A DNA stretch of 64,000 bases from Candidatus Nanoarchaeia archaeon (GTDB lineage: Archaea > Nanobdellota > Nanobdellia > Woesearchaeales > ARS49): assembly GCA_041488275.1 (NCBI GenBank), contig JBGPOY010000003.1:14092-78091 (forward strand). Reading direction: 5' to 3'. Position 1 is the stretch's first letter. The number at the start of each line of letters is the position of its first letter. This document shows positions 17,234 through 23,679 of this stretch, piece by piece. Under the pieces are notes generated by a model, which was not told where the DNA came from, ran no database searches, and saw only the letters and a program-made list of their open reading frames with translations. A program made the translations under genes and the position numbers.

Positions 17234-17677
17234 ATGACAATGGCAAATAAGGCAAACGGACTGAACGTGGCGAAATCGCTTATTGCCAGGCGCCACGCCG
17301 GCCGTTGGCACTCGAAGAAGTACGTCAAGCGCATTCTCGATCTCAAGACCAAGGCCGACCCGCTCGAAGGCGCGTCGCAGGCAAAAGGAATCGTTCTGGA
17401 AAAGGTTCAGCTCGAAGCCAAGCAACCGAACTCCGCGATGAGAAAGTGCGCCCGCGTCCAGCTCATCAAGAACGGCCGCCAAGTGACTGCGTTCATGCCG
17501 GGCGACGGCGCGCAGAAGCTCATCGACGAACACGACGAAGTCATGATTGAATGCATCGGCGGAAAGAAAGGACGCGCGAAAGGCGACATCCCCGGAGTCC
17601 GCTGGCAGGTTATCAAAGTCAACGATCAAAGCCTCGACGCATTGCTCGACGGCAAGATCGAGAAGGCACGAAAGTAA
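17234..17677 (+). CDS. rps12: Ribosomal protein uS12
   Basis: [15 protein letters not shown] and GDIPGVRW motifs. 147 aa. Confidence 0.95.
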
Positions 17678-17678
17678 T

Positions 17679-18299
17679 ATGGCAGACGAAGTTGCAGCCC
17701 ACTCCGGAATTCTCGCGTTCAACACGTGGAACACCGAAGGTATCGTGGTCGAGGACCTGGGCTTGCAGCGCTACATCATCACCCAAGCGCGTATCGTTCC
17801 CAAGACCGGCGCGCGCTACGCGGGCCACAACTTCCACAAGAGCAAGGTCTTCATTGTCGAACGCCTGATTAACAAGGTCATGAACCCCGGCACGAAGTCG
17901 GGCAAGCACTGGCACAGCTCCGGCCACATGACGGGCATGGCTCCGCAGGCGTACGACATCGTCCGCCGCGCGTTCATCCTGATTGAACAGCGCCTGAAAG
18001 AAAACCCGATCAAGGTCTTCGTCAAAGCGTTGGAAAACGCGGCTCCGAGAGAAGAAATCGTCACGATTGAATACGGCGGCGCCCGCTATCCGAAAGCGGT
18101 CGAGTGCGCTCCGCAGCGACGCATTGACATCGCATTGCGGTACTTCACGCAGGGCGCGTACGGCAAGAGCTTCAACTCCAAAGTCTCCATCGAAAGCGCG
18201 CTCGCCGACGAAATCATTTCCGCGTACCGGCTCGACCAGAAGTCAACCGCCATCCAGAAAAAGCTGGAATTGGAACGACAAGCGGACGCGAGCAGATAA
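17679..18299 (+). CDS. rps7: Ribosomal protein uS7
   Basis: Starts at the internal ATG 17679, 1 nt after the S12 stop. REEIVTIEYGGARYPKAV and IDIALRY are typical of archaeal S7. Confidence 0.92.
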   Translation: MADEVAAHSGILAFNTWNTEGIVVEDLGLQRYIITQARIVPKTGARYAGHNFHKSKVFIVERLINKVMNPGTKSGKHWHSSGHMTGMAPQAYDIVRRAFILIEQRLKENPIKVFVKALENAAPREEIVTIEYGGARYPKAVECAPQRRIDIALRYFTQGAYGKSFNSKVSIESALADEIISAYRLDQKSTAIQKKLELERQADASR

Positions 18300-18445
18300 T
18301 TCTTGCGACTTCGTTGAACTAAGAGAAGAGTCTTAATCCTGACTGCGAAGCAGTCAGTTATGACCTGCTTCTCGCAGTGGAACGAGGAGCAATTTGCTCA
18401 AGCTTTTCGAAAGCTTGCGACATGCGGACGCGAGCAGATAATTCT
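18282..18445. repeat. 22-nt direct repeat of the rps7 3' end (gcggacgcgagcagataattct) flanking a 120-nt insert
   Basis: Exact copies at 18282-18303 and 18424-18445. Weaker similarity continues for about 15 nt beyond each copy. Confidence 0.8.
18309..18420 (+). repeat. Copy 1 of a ~110-nt structured repeat (second copy at 46053-46165)
   Basis: Collinear similarity to 46053-46165 with no gaps over the first 88 nt. Central hairpin CTGACTGC-GAA-GCAGTCAG at 18339-18357. Confidence 0.75.
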
Positions 18446-18493
18446 GACTCTTCGTGCATAACTCTTTAAAGACCACTCTTCGGCGCTTCTTCC

Positions 18494-19723
18494 ATGAAGT
18501 TTGGGAAGAAAGTCATCGCCGGCGCGCTCGTGGCCGCCGCAAGTCTCTTGTCGCCTGCCTACGCGCAGAATGAGCCGGAAGTCTACGACAAGAACCCGTC
18601 GATTTCCGTCCCGATAAAGAGCCCCGTCACCAACGCCGACGCGAACACGCTCTTCAACGCGGGCGCGAACACCGCAACAGGCCTGCTCCTCAAAACACTG
18701 TCCAATGCGATTGACGTGGACAGCCCATGGTACCGCGGCGGCGAAACACTGACGCAGGTGTCCATCGACTCGTTGACCGCGGCAGTCTTTCACGAATTAG
18801 CCCATTACCGCGAAGCAGGCAACTTGGATAACTCTCGGCCCGGATTGCACGTGACGCCGCAGTTCGACCTTCGCCCCTTCGCGTACGGCATCTTCAGCGG
18901 AGGCGAGACCTCAATGATTGCCCAATATGATACTCCTGCCGTCCTGCCCGTAAGCGCCGCTGAACTGCTGGGCGTCATCGTTGCGGGACCCAACCAGCAG
19001 CACTTGAACGCGGCGCACATCTGGCGCACGAGCCGCGCACCGACGCGCACGTATCAGGATTCGGCGTTCCTGCTGTCGCAGCTTGCGGAAACAACCAGCC
19101 TTTTCTTCGACCCGCTCGCCAACGATGTCGTCGTGTACGGCAGTTTGATGAACCAGACTGGCATCCCCGTCAGCACCGCGCGGCTCAAGCGCAGCTCCGA
19201 AATCATCACCTTGCTCAATCTGCCCGTCTATGAATCCATCGCGCACTTGGTGGATTTCATCGCGACCGGAGAGCGCGAACACACACCGCTCAGTTTAGAA
19301 TTGGGCGACTGGACCATCTACGCGCCGCTCTTCACCAAATACATGACCGCGAAAGGCGAATTCGCGAACATTGAATTGCTCATCGACGGACCGGTGAAGT
19401 TCGACATCTCGTTCGGGAGAGACCTGAAGTTTAACCAACCGAGTGCGCCGCTCGACTGGATGCGGTTTGGCGGCACGGTCACGATTCCGCTGGACGGCAT
19501 CAGGCCGGGATTGACCGTCGCTCCGTTTGTCTACCTCAACAGCAAACGTTCGCAGCTGACGTATGAAGGCATCGCGACCGGGTTCGGCGTGTCGTATCCT
19601 CTGGTGCCGCGGTTTATGATTGATGGAATGGTTGAATACCAGAATAAAGACATCATTGAGCGCGTCGTCAAGAACTACCAGCAGCACTTTCAGTTCTTGG
19701 CGGGGTTCAGCCTGCGCTTCTAA
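18494..19723 (+). CDS. Secreted protein with bacterial outer-membrane beta-barrel-like C-terminal signature
   Basis: Sec-type signal peptide ending AYA-Q. The C-terminus HFQFLAGFSLRF has alternating hydrophobics and a terminal Phe. TATA ctttaaag lies about 25 nt upstream of the ATG. Confidence 0.6.
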   Translation: MKFGKKVIAGALVAAASLLSPAYAQNEPEVYDKNPSISVPIKSPVTNADANTLFNAGANTATGLLLKTLSNAIDVDSPWYRGGETLTQVSIDSLTAAVFHELAHYREAGNLDNSRPGLHVTPQFDLRPFAYGIFSGGETSMIAQYDTPAVLPVSAAELLGVIVAGPNQQHLNAAHIWRTSRAPTRTYQDSAFLLSQLAETTSLFFDPLANDVVVYGSLMNQTGIPVSTARLKRSSEIITLLNLPVYESIAHLVDFIATGEREHTPLSLELGDWTIYAPLFTKYMTAKGEFANIELLIDGPVKFDISFGRDLKFNQPSAPLDWMRFGGTVTIPLDGIRPGLTVAPFVYLNSKRSQLTYEGIATGFGVSYPLVPRFMIDGMVEYQNKDIIERVVKNYQQHFQFLAGFSLRF

Positions 19724-19771
19724 AGGTTTAAATACGCCACGCGACAGAGCAGAGACCGCAAAGAGGTACTT

Positions 19772-20929
19772 ATGAAGTTCCAGGTCTTTTGGGAGAATCC
19801 GCAGTATCGCCCGCGAAAAAAACTCTCGGAAGATATCAGTTGTGATTACCTTATTGTCGGTGGCGGGCTCACGGGCGTGTCTCTTGCGTATTTCTTGCAC
19901 CGTTCCAAAAAGATTGTGCTGATCGAGAAAGACACCGTCGCAAGCGGTGCTACGGGCAGGGCGGCAGGAATCCTCACCCTGAAAGGCGAGCTGGATCTCC
20001 AGGACATCATCCAAAAATTCGGAAGAAAGCAGGGACTCATTTTTTGGAAGGGCAATCATCAGGGGCTGCGGCTCGTCAAGAATATCATCACGAAAGAGAA
20101 AATCTCTTGTGACTTTGAGCCCCAAAGCACCATTTACGCCTGTTCGGAGAGCCACGAAACGAGCCCGCACGTGCTGGACGAATACATCACCGAGAAAGAC
20201 ATCGAGCGGTCAACGAAGCTCGTGGTCGGCAAAGAGTTGGAAAAGGAAGTGAAGACGCCGGTGTTCCGCTACGCCATCCTGTCGAAAGGACACGCGGCAT
20301 CCATCAATCCCCTGAAACTGACGCAAAACTTATCCAAGGTCGTCGAGCGAAAGGGCGTCCGGATATACGAGCACACCCCGTTCACGCATCTTCTCGGGCA
20401 TACCGCCGTAACGCCCCGGGGCAAGATTCATTTCAAAAAAATCATCTTCGCGATGGACGCGGACACGCGCAACAAGAAAATCAAACGAATCGAGTCGACG
20501 ATTGTCGTCACCGAGCCGCTGACCCGCAAAGAACTGCACAGCATCCACCTCGACAAAAAGAAGATTATCTGGGACTCGAAGAAAATCTATAACTACCTGA
20601 AAGTCACTCCTGACCGCAGGATTCTTCTCGGCTACGGAGACCATCCGGTGGGCAGACACCATCACAACAAGGGACCGCACGCGCCGCATCTCGCGAGAAT
20701 CAAGCTCTTTTTGGCGCGGCTCTTTCCCGATCTGCACGAGCGCATCGAGTACGCCTGGTCCGGCACGTTCGGCAAAACCGACAACAAGGTGCCCATCATT
20801 GAATGGAAACGAGACCGCATCGTCGTTGCCGGTCCTGCTTCGCAAGTCGTCAGCGTGCTGACCGCAAAGCACGTCGCAGACCTGCTTCAAAACAAACGCT
20901 CCGTGCTGGAAGGATTTTTCAGGCGTTAG
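19772..20929 (+). CDS. FAD-dependent oxidoreductase (DAO/glycine oxidase-like)
   Basis: N-terminal dinucleotide fold DYLIVGGGLTGVSLAYFL. 385 aa. Confidence 0.75.
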   Translation: MKFQVFWENPQYRPRKKLSEDISCDYLIVGGGLTGVSLAYFLHRSKKIVLIEKDTVASGATGRAAGILTLKGELDLQDIIQKFGRKQGLIFWKGNHQGLRLVKNIITKEKISCDFEPQSTIYACSESHETSPHVLDEYITEKDIERSTKLVVGKELEKEVKTPVFRYAILSKGHAASINPLKLTQNLSKVVERKGVRIYEHTPFTHLLGHTAVTPRGKIHFKKIIFAMDADTRNKKIKRIESTIVVTEPLTRKELHSIHLDKKKIIWDSKKIYNYLKVTPDRRILLGYGDHPVGRHHHNKGPHAPHLARIKLFLARLFPDLHERIEYAWSGTFGKTDNKVPIIEWKRDRIVVAGPASQVVSVLTAKHVADLLQNKRSVLEGFFRR

Positions 20930-20932
20930 AAA

Positions 20933-21199
20933 CTACTTTCTCTTCCGCTCAAACGTCCACTTCATCGCCGCGAGGACGATGATGCAGACGCCGACGAACG
21001 CGTTCAGAAACGTGATGAAGAAGTCGCCGAGATGCAGTCCGTAAAAGAAGAACAGGGTTGCGCCGGTGATGCCGAAGAACGTCAAAAGCCAGTTGAGGTC
21101 CTTCAAATGCTTGGTTTTCCACGCCTGCCAGAGCTCGGGAATCCATTGGAGCAGGACACAGATGCTTCCCAGCGTGGCAACGACGTCCCAGACGTTCAT
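20933..21199 (-). CDS. PQ-loop / SemiSWEET-like three-helix transporter
   Basis: 88 aa with three TM helices. LLQWIPELWQAWKTKHLKDL resembles the PQ-loop motif followed by a basic stretch. TATA tatttatagg lies about 24 nt upstream, so the transcript is probably leaderless. Confidence 0.55.
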   Translation of the reverse strand: MNVWDVVATLGSICVLLQWIPELWQAWKTKHLKDLNWLLTFFGITGATLFFFYGLHLGDFFITFLNAFVGVCIIVLAAMKWTFERKRK

Positions 21200-21270: not shown

Positions 21271-21320
21271 ACCATCACTCCTGATGAATAACAACACTAG
21301 TATTAGTGGGGGTAACGCAC

Positions 21321-22688
21321 ATGAAGAATCTGACTCTGTTGTCCATCGTGATGCTCGTTGCCATCGCGCTCTTCTCCGTCGGCGCAAGCGCACAGCTTGC
21401 AGTCACGGGAACGACGCTCGGCAGTGACAGCACCAAGGCAGGACAAAACGTCACCGGCACGATTACGTTGACCAACAACGGCAACGTGACCATCAATAAC
21501 ATCGCACTCTCCAGCACCGCTGCGAGCAAGTACTTTATCGGCTTCACGGGAGCACCCACGAGCCTCGCTGCGGGCGCAAGCGCGACCATCAGCATTTCGG
21601 GATTCCTCTCGAAGGATCTCGACGCGGTTGACACCTCGTTCAACCCGCTGCAGCAAAACGTCGGCAACGTCGTCGCCACGGGCACCGGCTCCGCGACCGC
21701 GAGCGCTCCGATTTTGATGCAAATCCGCAACGTGCTCCACATCAAGAAAGTCGTGGTCACCGTCAACGGTCAGGACGACAAGAGCCTGAACGACGGAGAC
21801 ACCATCAAGGCCCTCAAGCCCGGCGACTCCTTGACCATCAAGGTTGAAGTCGAAAACCAGTTCAGCACCTCGAGCTCCGAGGACCGCGACCTGGAAAACG
21901 TCCGCGTCACGCTTGACAGCGAGAACGACATCGACCTCAGCGACACCGAACAGACGATTGACAGCATCTCCGCCGACAGCACCGAAGACCAAACCTTCGA
22001 CGCGACCGTCACGGACGCCGCCTCCGGCACCTACCGCTTGCAGGTTACTGCAGACGGCAACGGCCAGAGCCCGTTCACCGGACGCTACGCGGAACGCATC
22101 GTCGTCTTCCTCAAGGTTGAACGCGAAAGCCACGAGCTCGCCATCCGCTCGGCCTCAATCAGCCCGAGCATCCTCGCCTGCGGCGCAACCCGCAACGTCG
22201 ATGCCAAGGCGCACATCGTGAACACCGGCAAGAGCAACGAGAACGACGTCTCCGTCGAACTCGCCATCCCTGCGCTCGGCATCAGCGTCAGAAAGGACGC
22301 CATCAAGCTCGACAAGAGCGACGAAACGACCCGCACCATCAGCGCGACCCTCCCTGACTCCGTCAAGCCGGGCACGTATGAAGCGGACATCGTGACGTAC
22401 TTCGCCGGCACCAGCGAAAGCGACCGCAAGGCCCTGACCCTCAAGGTCGAGGACTGCGCCGCCCCTGCGACGACGCCGACGCCGGTTGTCACGCAGCCGA
22501 CGACGCCTACCACGCCTCCGGTCACCGCGACGCCTCCGACGGTTGTCTCGAGCACCAAGGCAAGCGCCACGTCGTCCTTCTGGGACAGCGGCGCGGGCAT
22601 CGCGACGCTCGTCATCGGCATCCTTGTTGCGGTTGCAGTCATCGTGCTTTTGGTCACGATGATTACCCGCAAGCCGACGGCTGAATAA
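21321..22688 (+). CDS. Cell-surface (S-layer-like) glycoprotein candidate with C-terminal membrane anchor
   Basis: Signal peptide MKNLTLLSIVMLVAIALFSVGASA, many N-x-S/T sites, a Pro/Thr linker TTPTPVVTQPTTPTTPPVTATPP, then a TM helix and a basic tail. Confidence 0.7.
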   Translation: MKNLTLLSIVMLVAIALFSVGASAQLAVTGTTLGSDSTKAGQNVTGTITLTNNGNVTINNIALSSTAASKYFIGFTGAPTSLAAGASATISISGFLSKDLDAVDTSFNPLQQNVGNVVATGTGSATASAPILMQIRNVLHIKKVVVTVNGQDDKSLNDGDTIKALKPGDSLTIKVEVENQFSTSSSEDRDLENVRVTLDSENDIDLSDTEQTIDSISADSTEDQTFDATVTDAASGTYRLQVTADGNGQSPFTGRYAERIVVFLKVERESHELAIRSASISPSILACGATRNVDAKAHIVNTGKSNENDVSVELAIPALGISVRKDAIKLDKSDETTRTISATLPDSVKPGTYEADIVTYFAGTSESDRKALTLKVEDCAAPATTPTPVVTQPTTPTTPPVTATPPTVVSSTKASATSSFWDSGAGIATLVIGILVAVAVIVLLVTMITRKPTAE

Positions 22689-22692
22689 GCAT

Positions 22693-22729
22693 CTCTTCTT
22701 TTTTCTTTTTCTTATTTCTCGTTTTTTAT
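22693..22729 (+). terminator. Oligo-T terminator tract
   Basis: cttcttttttctttttcttatttctcgttttttat lies directly after the stop codon. Confidence 0.55.
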
Positions 22730-22777
22730 CATACCAACGACGACTTGAATTCACTCCGTTGAGCGCTCCCGTTTCTT

Positions 22778-22840
22778 CCCAGGCAGTACGGCCGTAGGCG
22801 CCCGTCAAGAGTCGCACAACTAACGACAAACCTGCCTGCG
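22778..22840 (-). repeat. Copy E of the palindromic intergenic repeat family
   Basis: cccaggcagt ... gagtcgcacaac ... cctgcctgcg. This is the reverse orientation relative to copies A and B. Confidence 0.65.
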
Positions 22841-22938
22841 TCCCGGAAACGATTGCCCATCCTACGCATGACACTGCCGTGAAAACCACGGATTTCTCTC
22901 AGGAACGCATTTGAATCCTGTCCTGCGTCATTCAGGCA

Positions 22939-23679
22939 ATGAAAAACGCGGTGTGGGTGTTGGCGGCCTTGCTGGCGACGTCGTTCGTGACGGGCATCAC
23001 GGTTCCCTTGACGCTGGCCGTTGAGCCGGGACCGTTCTCCATCGTCAGCGCGAGCGTGAACATGCCGCGCGTGACGCTTGCAGCAGGGCAGGGCGCGGAC
23101 GTCACCGTGACGACGCAACTTTCGTCGCCCGGGACGGTCGTGATGACCGCGTTGAATACGGTGGCCGACTCGAACAGCACGACCGTCTTTACTGCCTCGT
23201 TCCACGTTCCGTTTACGTTTCCGTCCGGCAATTATACCGTGACGCTGACGGCAAGCAACGGCACGGACACCGTGACAGCCGCGCTGCCACTCGAGATTCT
23301 TCCCCTCACCGCGGTGGGCCTTGATGCGCCATCGCTTCTTCGGCATCTCACCCCGGGAAGCACCCTCGCCCTCGAGGGAGATGCCGATTTTTCCTCACCC
23401 AGCAAGCCGACGCTGCAGAACCTCGGCAACGTGCCGATTGATTTGACCATCAGCGCCGATACGCCCACAACAGGAAGCCAGAAAGTCGCGCTTTCCAACA
23501 TACTGCTGTCCGTGGACAACGCGACGTTCATCACGCTGAAAACGTCAACGCAAACGCTGAGCGTGAATCTGCTGCCTAATCAAACAATTCCTTTGTATTT
23601 GAGAATTACCGTACCGGACACGACATCGCCGGGGAACTACACCGGAGCCCTGCACGTGAGTGCGAAGCGCGCCGGATAG
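22939..23679 (+). CDS. Secreted hypothetical protein (signal peptide, beta-rich)
   Basis: N-terminal signal VWVLAALLATSFVTG. 246 aa. No catalytic motifs. Confidence 0.6.
   Translation: MKNAVWVLAALLATSFVTGITVPLTLAVEPGPFSIVSASVNMPRVTLAAGQGADVTVTTQLSSPGTVVMTALNTVADSNSTTVFTASFHVPFTFPSGNYTVTLTASNGTDTVTAALPLEILPLTAVGLDAPSLLRHLTPGSTLALEGDADFSSPSKPTLQNLGNVPIDLTISADTPTTGSQKVALSNILLSVDNATFITLKTSTQTLSVNLLPNQTIPLYLRITVPDTTSPGNYTGALHVSAKRAG

Follow-up and report, generated by a model that had tools for sequence, protein, structure and literature searches.

A family of exported Woesearchaeal proteins predicted to join an outer-membrane-type beta-barrel to an HExxH domain

The window considered here, the whole stretch of 64,000 nucleotides (nt) that was analysed from a Candidatus Nanoarchaeia archaeon, belongs to a contig of 148.8 kb in a genome that comprises 917 kb in 13 contigs and is 94% complete; Candidatus Nanoarchaeia and Candidatus Woesearchaeota are the labels given to relatives from the same taxonomic family. 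At positions 18494-19723 of the forward strand lies an open reading frame (ORF), confirmed with its stop codon included, that encodes a protein of 409 amino acids (aa). This gene is native to the archaeal genome and accessory in it, and its product is predicted to fold as a barrel of the outer-membrane type that carries a helical domain with an HExxH motif. To its 5' side are genes for the RNA polymerase Rpb1 domains split as A' and A'', L30e, a NusA with KH domains only, S12, and S7; to its 3' side are an oxidoreductase of the DAO family, a SemiSWEET, and then CARDB-type surface proteins. The n-region of the protein is basic, its h-region is hydrophobic, and Ala occupies -3 and -1, a combination that, as read by eye, places the mature start after MKFGKKVIAGALVAAASLLSPAYA, at QNEP; it ends in HFQFLAGFSLRF, with the tail LAGFSLRF. 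An earlier note on this DNA had pointed to the 409-aa ORF, a signal peptide ending AYA-Q, a terminal Phe, archaeal flanks, and an archaeal TATA sequence, ctttaaag, upstream of the ATG, and all of these are present. The gene and its parts, as read from the sequence and from a predicted structure, are as follows.

18464..18471, forward strand: TATA-like box, ctttaaag, whose TTTAAA begins 29 nt before the ATG
18494..19723, forward strand: complete coding sequence, 409 aa, of an unnamed family that joins an HExxH domain and a predicted beta-barrel
18494..18565, forward strand: Sec-type signal peptide, aa 1-24, with a putative cleavage site AYA/Q assigned by inspection; a similar N-terminus is present in most full-length relatives
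18599..18613, forward strand: predicted strand 1, aa 36-40 (DSSP on the AlphaFold2 model; the alignments to outer-membrane barrels begin at residues 33-37)
18614..18850, forward strand: long loop 1, aa 41-119, with two long predicted helices and HELAH (AlphaFold2 model and alignment)
18851..18922, forward strand: predicted beta-hairpin, aa 120-143 (120-131 and 134-143), that is, strands 2 and 3 with a 2-residue turn (AlphaFold2 model and structure search)
18923..19291, forward strand: long loop 2, aa 144-266, with five predicted helices and the invariant residues G165, N167, Q168 (AGPNQ), and D211
19292..19720, forward strand: C-terminal strands, aa 267-409, 9-10 predicted strands, including a loop helix at 387-392 and D386, which is more than 90% conserved
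19685..19720, forward strand: final predicted strand and beta-signal (HFQFLAGFSLRF, aa 398-409), in which the terminal residue is F, G stands at -6, and positions -5 and -3 are hydrophobic

The protein has no match in Pfam or NCBIfam even at an expectation value (E) of 10, and a sequence search of the PDB also returns none. However distant, relatives are found by phmmer among 1.84 billion cluster representatives, where 103 proteins reach E ≤1e-3; most are about 400 aa long, the best is 35% identical, and the family diverges very fast (25-38% identity between members). Within the 44 full-length sequences that were aligned, H100, E101, H104, G165, N167, Q168, D211, P278, and G288 are invariant, and R81, G259, G326, P344, G359, G363, D386, and G398 are conserved in at least 90%. 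Both His residues of the HExxH motif are conserved in at least 90% of 104 sequences, fragments included. (The loci from genomes G354 and G606 were left out of the alignments.) At the other end of the protein, 89 of 100 aligned family members terminate exactly at the final residue of the beta-signal. That residue is F in 61 of the 100 tails, Y in 8, and W in 4; in another 26 it is L, I, or M. Position -6 is Gly in 78 tails, and positions -3 and -5 are hydrophobic in 85 and 95 tails, respectively. Judged by sequence, this pattern is the canonical beta-signal of outer-membrane proteins (OMPs) and not chance. The Pfam family PF13505 (OMP_b-brl) is matched weakly by 3 of the 104 relatives, with a best E of 4e-4.

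Members of the family also vary in length and in their N-termini. P0004 (586 aa), the relative that the tree places nearest, carries at its N-terminus a twin-arginine motif and then a lipobox-like LGAC, and its helical domain contains a large insertion; judging from this protein, some members may be lipoproteins that are exported by the twin-arginine translocation (Tat) pathway. In the Woesearchaeales homologues of genomes G405 (L007/L017, 534 aa) and G507 (L022/L024, 508 aa), 25-45 or more extra residues separate the helical domain from the C-terminal strands, and the profile match is split into two stretches.

Insight into the fold came from AlphaFold2, which, when given the 104-sequence alignment, yields a model with a mean predicted local distance difference test (pLDDT) score of 91.1 and a predicted template modelling (pTM) score of 0.88; the single-sequence prediction, with a pLDDT of 30, is of no use. 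DSSP assigns to this model helices at residues 48-73 and 78-114 (the second of which contains HELAH), further helices between 155 and 258, and strands at 267-408. When the model is compared with the PDB by Foldseek, 48 of the 49 chains listed are outer-membrane barrels, the best being NanC (2wjq, E 9e-4). With VIA-align, 47 of the 50 chains listed are bacterial outer-membrane or mitochondrial barrels, among them KdgM (Z 10.1 over 139 aa, root-mean-square deviation 4.6), OmpT of V. cholerae (Z 9.9), NanC (Z 9.8), OmpG (Z 9.2), FapF (Z 8.5), OMPLA (Z 7.9), and LpxR (Z 7.6), as well as autotransporter beta-domains. The predicted model aligns to barrels of 12-16 strands at Z 8-10. Because these alignments span residues from about 35 to 409, strand 1, the hairpin, and the C-terminal strands would together make up the barrel, with a total of about 12 strands.

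The predicted topology also resembles that of an OMP. If residues 267-276 are counted as a single strand, one face of the barrel would have connections of 2, 2, 3, 8, and 2 residues, and the opposite face connections of 79, 123, 2, 11, 5, and 14 residues; both predicted termini are located on the short-turn face, in agreement with the classical OMP rule. Across the family, 11 of the 12 predicted strands alternate, having a hydrophobic face with a mean hydropathy of +0.8 to +3.4 and 1-13% charged residues and a polar face with a mean hydropathy of -0.1 to -2.0 and 2-40% charged residues. The remaining strand, 267-276, has no such contrast. The helices are amphipathic rather than transmembrane, with family mean hydropathies of -0.6 to +0.4. 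The model assigns to the protein, with high confidence, an outer-membrane-type, barrel-like antiparallel fold of about 12 strands. Together with the family-wide beta-signal, this predicted fold bears out the suspicion that first drew attention to the gene, namely that an archaeal gene carries the signature of a bacterial-style outer-membrane barrel.

In the model, loops 1 and 2 lie on the same side of the barrel, where they form a helical domain of about 200 aa, and the conserved ND..E helix of the last loop is on this side as well. The invariant HExxH, which is HELAH in this protein (aa 100-104, nt 18791-18805), is positioned on helix 78-114. Its residues make this a zincin-like HExxH site, a description that carries no class assignment beyond that, and the head probably is a zinc-binding hydrolase site. 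If the model is correct, this domain, which the earlier note had passed over, makes an enzyme anchored by a barrel a better functional reading than a porin. No Pfam model describes a helical HExxH domain formed by two loops of a barrel, and the solved structures that were searched contain no counterpart. A few weak hints favour the M50 site-2 proteases. RseP is the only protease in the top 50 folds (Z 6.8, aa 79-222). A profile search of the PDB gives no significant match, its top entry being MJ0392 at a non-significant E of 0.27, and the best non-self match of the N-terminal profile is the genome's own M50 protein (E 0.1).

Several observations indicate that the gene belongs to the genome in which it is found. 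Its GC content of 0.584 and its GC at third codon positions of 0.77 compare with means of 0.578 and 0.738 for the ORFs of the genome, and its distance in codon usage from the genome mean is at the 11th percentile among ORFs of similar length. Throughout the genome, TATA-like hexamers form a sharp peak at -32 to -27 from the ATG of long ORFs (201 in two bins versus about 10 in each other bin), which implies that leaderless mRNAs are the rule. Since the TTTAAA of the barrel gene, at -29, falls on this peak, the gene has a leaderless-type promoter that is native to this genome, and its mRNA is expected to be leaderless or nearly so; the gene is probably expressed. In addition, an independent 5,563-bp Logan contig from a sediment-metagenome run is identical, with zero differences, to positions 17600-20400 and bridges the junction between the S7 gene and the barrel gene. 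(It should be kept in mind that this run is probably the source sample, so that the match tests the assembly and not the biology.) The idea that the gene sits on a chimeric or misjoined bacterial fragment, which the earlier note had raised, is contradicted by this contig.

A broader form of the same idea, in which the gene is either such a misjoined fragment or a recently transferred bacterial OMP gene that is decaying without function, is largely refuted and must be considered very improbable. It can appeal to a fold type that is otherwise bacterial and to the 22-nt duplication and insert at 18282-18445, which mark a rearrangement-prone spot. However, besides the bridged junction and the native composition, codon usage, and promoter, the ORF is intact and retains every family-invariant residue, and homologues are present in archaeal contexts in at least eight other genomes, including on a 1.47-Mb contig. 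Horizontal acquisition of a bacterial OMP gene, the first possibility in the earlier note, is borne out only in part: the accessory status of the gene agrees with it, but foreign composition is not seen, the promoter is native, and all identified carriers are Woesearchaeota/Nanoarchaeia, under the labels Candidatus Nanoarchaeia or Woesearchaeota, so that searches short of a bacterial census point to no bacterial donor.

The distribution of the family is patchy. Matches to the family profile in sampled genomes number 15/401 at the level of the phylum, 7/401 at that of the order, 4/29 in the gene's own family, and 0/4 among the congeners, and 4 of the 103 representatives, the query included, are identical to proteins of sampled DPANN genomes. 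In a FastTree phylogeny of 96 sequences, the 11 DPANN-labelled rows (10 sequences from sampled genomes plus the metagenome contig L019) are spread over most clades, with 10 label changes, as in shuffles; given this scatter, the known carriers are Woesearchaeales throughout. No bacterial carrier was identified in searches that did not amount to a census of bacterial genomes (E. coli K-12 is without a match), and tblastn of the family proteins P0001 and P0100 against 72,556 plasmids likewise gave no match. A word-indexed homologue search with the protein recovers the query only and, with the profile, the query and P0084; a search for related loci with a narrow alignment, again no bacterial census, recovers one Nanoarchaeia metagenome-assembled genome and one metagenome contig. 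The nearest clusters in the ESM Atlas, unnamed hypothetical proteins of 394-424 aa with scores of 0.96-0.97 that are labelled bacterial, were set aside as merely putative kin whose labels are treated as unreliable, and a search of the named clusters only gave no match. No paralogue of the barrel gene was found in the genome. Across 10 carrier loci there is no conserved neighbour gene and all neighbourhoods differ; those neighbours that can be read are archaeal, namely MetAP2-type, M50, Lrp-type, and AbrB-type proteins.

One clade departs from the rest of the family. Its members, P0098, P0076, P0051, P0100, and P0044, have no signal peptides, and their amino-acid make-up is unlike that of the rest of the alignment; most keep the terminal Phe, while P0044 ends in LRLP. 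P0098 has a complete DUF4157/eCIS_core domain (PF13699, E 4e-31) before a whole HExxH-barrel module, and P0076 has a remnant of it. DUF4157 stands N-terminal to toxin domains in loci for extracellular contractile injection systems (eCIS) (PMC8213781). The position of DUF4157 in P0098, which is the one that it has before toxin domains, links the module in this one clade to an action on other cells.

Barrels of the OMP type and the beta-signal are regarded as hallmarks of diderm bacteria and their organelles, and we are aware of no archaea that make or assemble such structures. A search of the literature gave no report of such barrels in Woesearchaeota, and a possible distant PopA-like relative in Altiarchaeales was mentioned in 2025 (PMC12228718). 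Two more exported beta-rich proteins are encoded in the genome, one of 514 aa (signal peptide ending SSAFA/Q) and one of 543 aa (signal peptide ending SNAYA/Q), each with a Pro-rich linker and a long beta-rich body. Neither belongs to a Pfam family, and both are candidates for further barrels.

Contig C6, 12740-14281 (L072:1740-3281), forward strand: 514-aa candidate with a beta-signal-like tail, GVGIHF
Contig C9 (L073:1010-2641), reverse strand: 543-aa candidate with a sub-threshold match to PF13505 (12.8 bits)

The barrel gene occupies a variable slot. In four species of the same genus, S12-S7 on one side and SWEET-CARDB-p246 on the other are conserved, and what lies between S7 and SWEET differs; neither the barrel gene nor the DAO gene is present in the slot of any of these congeners. 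Three of them have instead a protein of about 320 aa that is anchored in the membrane and carries an ASLMK (SxxK) motif like that of class-A beta-lactamases. As judged by eye, this protein resembles a class-A beta-lactamase or a serine hydrolase of the penicillin-binding type. The slot thus seems to collect exported enzymes that act on the envelope. At its left edge, just 5' of the promoter of the barrel gene, is a duplication with an insert that looks like either a MITE-type (miniature inverted-repeat transposable element) insertion with an unusually long target duplication or a scar of cassette exchange. The features around the gene and in the congeners are as follows.

17676..18299, forward strand: rps7, last gene of the rpoA'-rpoA''-L30e-nusA-S12-S7 operon and the slot's conserved left border (Pfam Ribosomal_S7, E 1.6e-37; 80-87% identity in the four congeners)
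18282..18445, no strand: exact 22-nt duplication of the 3' end of rps7 (18282-18303 and 18424-18445) around a 120-nt hairpin-bearing insert, read directly
19772..20929, forward strand: FAD-dependent oxidoreductase (DAO family), second gene of the variable slot, missing from the slot of the congeners
20933..21199, reverse strand: SemiSWEET (MtN3/PQ-loop), the conserved right border of the slot by comparison with the congeners
L030 5620-6597, reverse strand; L032 5818-6816, reverse strand; L033 782-1735, forward strand: ASLMK-motif proteins in the slots of three congeners, read by eye
L031 5873-6214, forward strand: a 113-aa ORF, the only content of the slot in the fourth congener

Beyond the SemiSWEET, positions 21306-23679 encode two exported surface-type proteins, both of which are kept in the congeners. 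One, of 460 aa, is a CARDB/DUF7507 protein that has a stalk rich in Thr and Pro and is anchored in the membrane at its C-terminus; the other, of 246 aa, is secreted. With these two conserved genes to its 3' side, the barrel gene is located at the edge of a cell-surface gene neighbourhood.

The reading that we tentatively favour makes the protein a zinc hydrolase anchored by its barrel in a lipid layer beyond the cytoplasmic membrane, for which the membrane of a partner cell is the preferred candidate. The product would be exported across the cytoplasmic membrane by its Sec signal peptide, which would be cleaved after AYA. The mature protein would then fold as an antiparallel barrel of about 12 strands, with loops 1 and 2 forming the helical head, to which the short helix of the last loop probably also contributes, and the barrel would embed in a lipid layer outside the cytoplasmic membrane of the archaeon. 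This layer may be the membrane of a partner or host cell at the point of contact, which is the favoured site, or alternatively an outer layer, so far undescribed, that belongs to the archaeon. Once embedded, the barrel would keep the zinc head at the membrane surface, where the head could cut a surface protein or a lipid-linked component of the envelope; insertion would be independent of Omp85 or would make use of the partner's own machinery. Zinc binding, catalysis, membrane residence, and the choice of membrane are all inferred in this scheme. Its wider form is possible but doubtful: that Woesearchaeal DPANN archaea make true transmembrane barrels without Omp85, and that the present protein represents a new class of barrel enzymes whose zincin-like head is made from two barrel loops, and works in an unrecognised outer layer or in a partner's membrane at a symbiotic or parasitic interface.

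A number of points weigh against a membrane-embedded barrel enzyme. The barrel is predicted from fold matches and from DSSP segments that allow 12 or 13 strands, and the alternation within the strands, taken alone, fits a lipid-facing exterior and a hydrophobic interior alike. Omp85/BamA (PF01103) was not found in the organism's own genome, at its 94% completeness, or in those of five other carriers, although the same model detects it in seven diderm bacterial genomes used as a control, and we know of no outer membrane described for the host group. The loops of 80 and 120 residues would also be hard to move unaided across a bilayer. As for the enzyme, the third zinc ligand is represented by candidate residues only (D211, N167/Q168, and D386/E389). 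A kinship with M50 has been downgraded, since hhalign aligns the HExxH and AG(P/L)N motifs of the two with matching spacing at a probability of 27%, compared with 20%, on the HExxH motif alone, for a control made with the M48 proteases of the same genomes.

Alternatively, the protein could be a soluble, exported metalloprotease, acting in the S-layer space or in the medium, in which the barrel is a scaffold, possibly around or against the helices, and the C-terminal motif is structural. The amphipathic helices agree with this, as do the negative search for an insertase in six carriers and the clade with DUF4157, in which the terminal Phe is kept without a signal peptide, so that the motif need not be a signal for the barrel assembly machinery (BAM). 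Nevertheless, it is unlikely: the near fold neighbours are all membrane barrels, nearly all strands have a face with 1-13% charged residues over 104 sequences that would be hard to bury in a barrel of about 12 strands unless it faced lipid, and the asymmetry of short turns and long loops, with both termini on one face, follows the OMP rule. A soluble beta-rich protein that only mimics the signal, the third possibility in the earlier note, likewise fits poorly with a barrel of about 12 strands and a nearly charge-free strand face. Another alternative is a secreted, self-inserting monomeric pore or membrane-damaging toxin that is aimed at competitors or at a host and uses the HExxH head for maturation or for recognition of its target. 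The clade of P0098, in which the domain follows DUF4157/eCIS_core and signal peptides are missing, is consistent with such a conflict effector, and so is a gene that is patchy, accessory, fast-diverging, and located in a variable slot. Still, it is distinctly unlikely, because no immunity-like neighbour is conserved at the 10 loci, a complete DUF4157 is present in just 1 of 104 members, and HExxH, NQ, and D are so strictly conserved that selection seems to act on catalysis. A further alternative, related to the double-membraned host that the earlier note proposed as its second possibility, is that the archaeon has an outer membrane of its own, with the protein as a resident barrel inserted by a machine other than Omp85. 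This too appears improbable, given that Omp85 was not found in the six carriers, that no double membrane has to our knowledge been reported for Woesearchaeota, and that a family present in about 2-4% of the sampled relatives and in 0/4 congeners is unlike a core component of an envelope. What speaks for it are the two further beta-rich candidates in the genome, one of which ends in GVGIHF, and the existence elsewhere of diderm archaea, which are known from only a few lineages, among them Ignicoccus, ARMAN, and Altiarchaeum (PMC8871954).

A barrel anchored in a membrane beyond the cytoplasmic one, with a partner's membrane as the preferred site, continues to be our tentative reading. A native barrel gene in genomes where no Omp85 was found calls for a new route of insertion, an unseen membrane, or delivery into the membrane of another cell; each of these options would be informative about how DPANN cells touch their partners, and a single protein of 409 aa is an object on which they can be tested.

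Comparison with known systems places the protein between several of them. The best structural matches are the 12-stranded specific porins of Proteobacteria, KdgM and NanC (4pr7, 2wjq/2wjr, and 8xua), at Z 9.1-10.1 over 139-154 residues. Like these porins, it is predicted to have a barrel of similar size with the short turns and both termini on one face, an aromatic-terminated C-terminal strand, and export by a Sec signal peptide. Unlike them, it is an archaeal protein, only 7-16% identical to them in sequence; it has no match to the Pfam KdgM family, has two loops grown into the helical HExxH domain of about 200 aa, and belongs to an archaeal host in which no Omp85 was found; the likeness implies no pore function. 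The cargo toxins of eCIS that contain DUF4157 differ from the window protein in that it has a signal peptide and no DUF4157, and no eCIS genes are seen nearby. With the M50 site-2 proteases (RseP, 7w6z; MJ0392, 3b4r) it shares an HExxH on a long helix and the order of an HExxH helix, a beta-hairpin, and a helix with AG(P/L)N, but its helices are not hydrophobic, the NxxPxxxxDG motif is missing, and there is no match to the Pfam M50 family. In OMPLA (1fw2), LpxR (3fid), PagL/PagP, and the omptins, which have no sequence similarity to it, the catalytic residues are carried by the wall of the barrel or by short loops, and a helical HExxH domain is absent from all of them. Yet it is these enzymes, with OMPLA and LpxR among its structural neighbours, that the predicted protein resembles in general design, as a small barrel that would anchor a hydrolytic site at the membrane surface.

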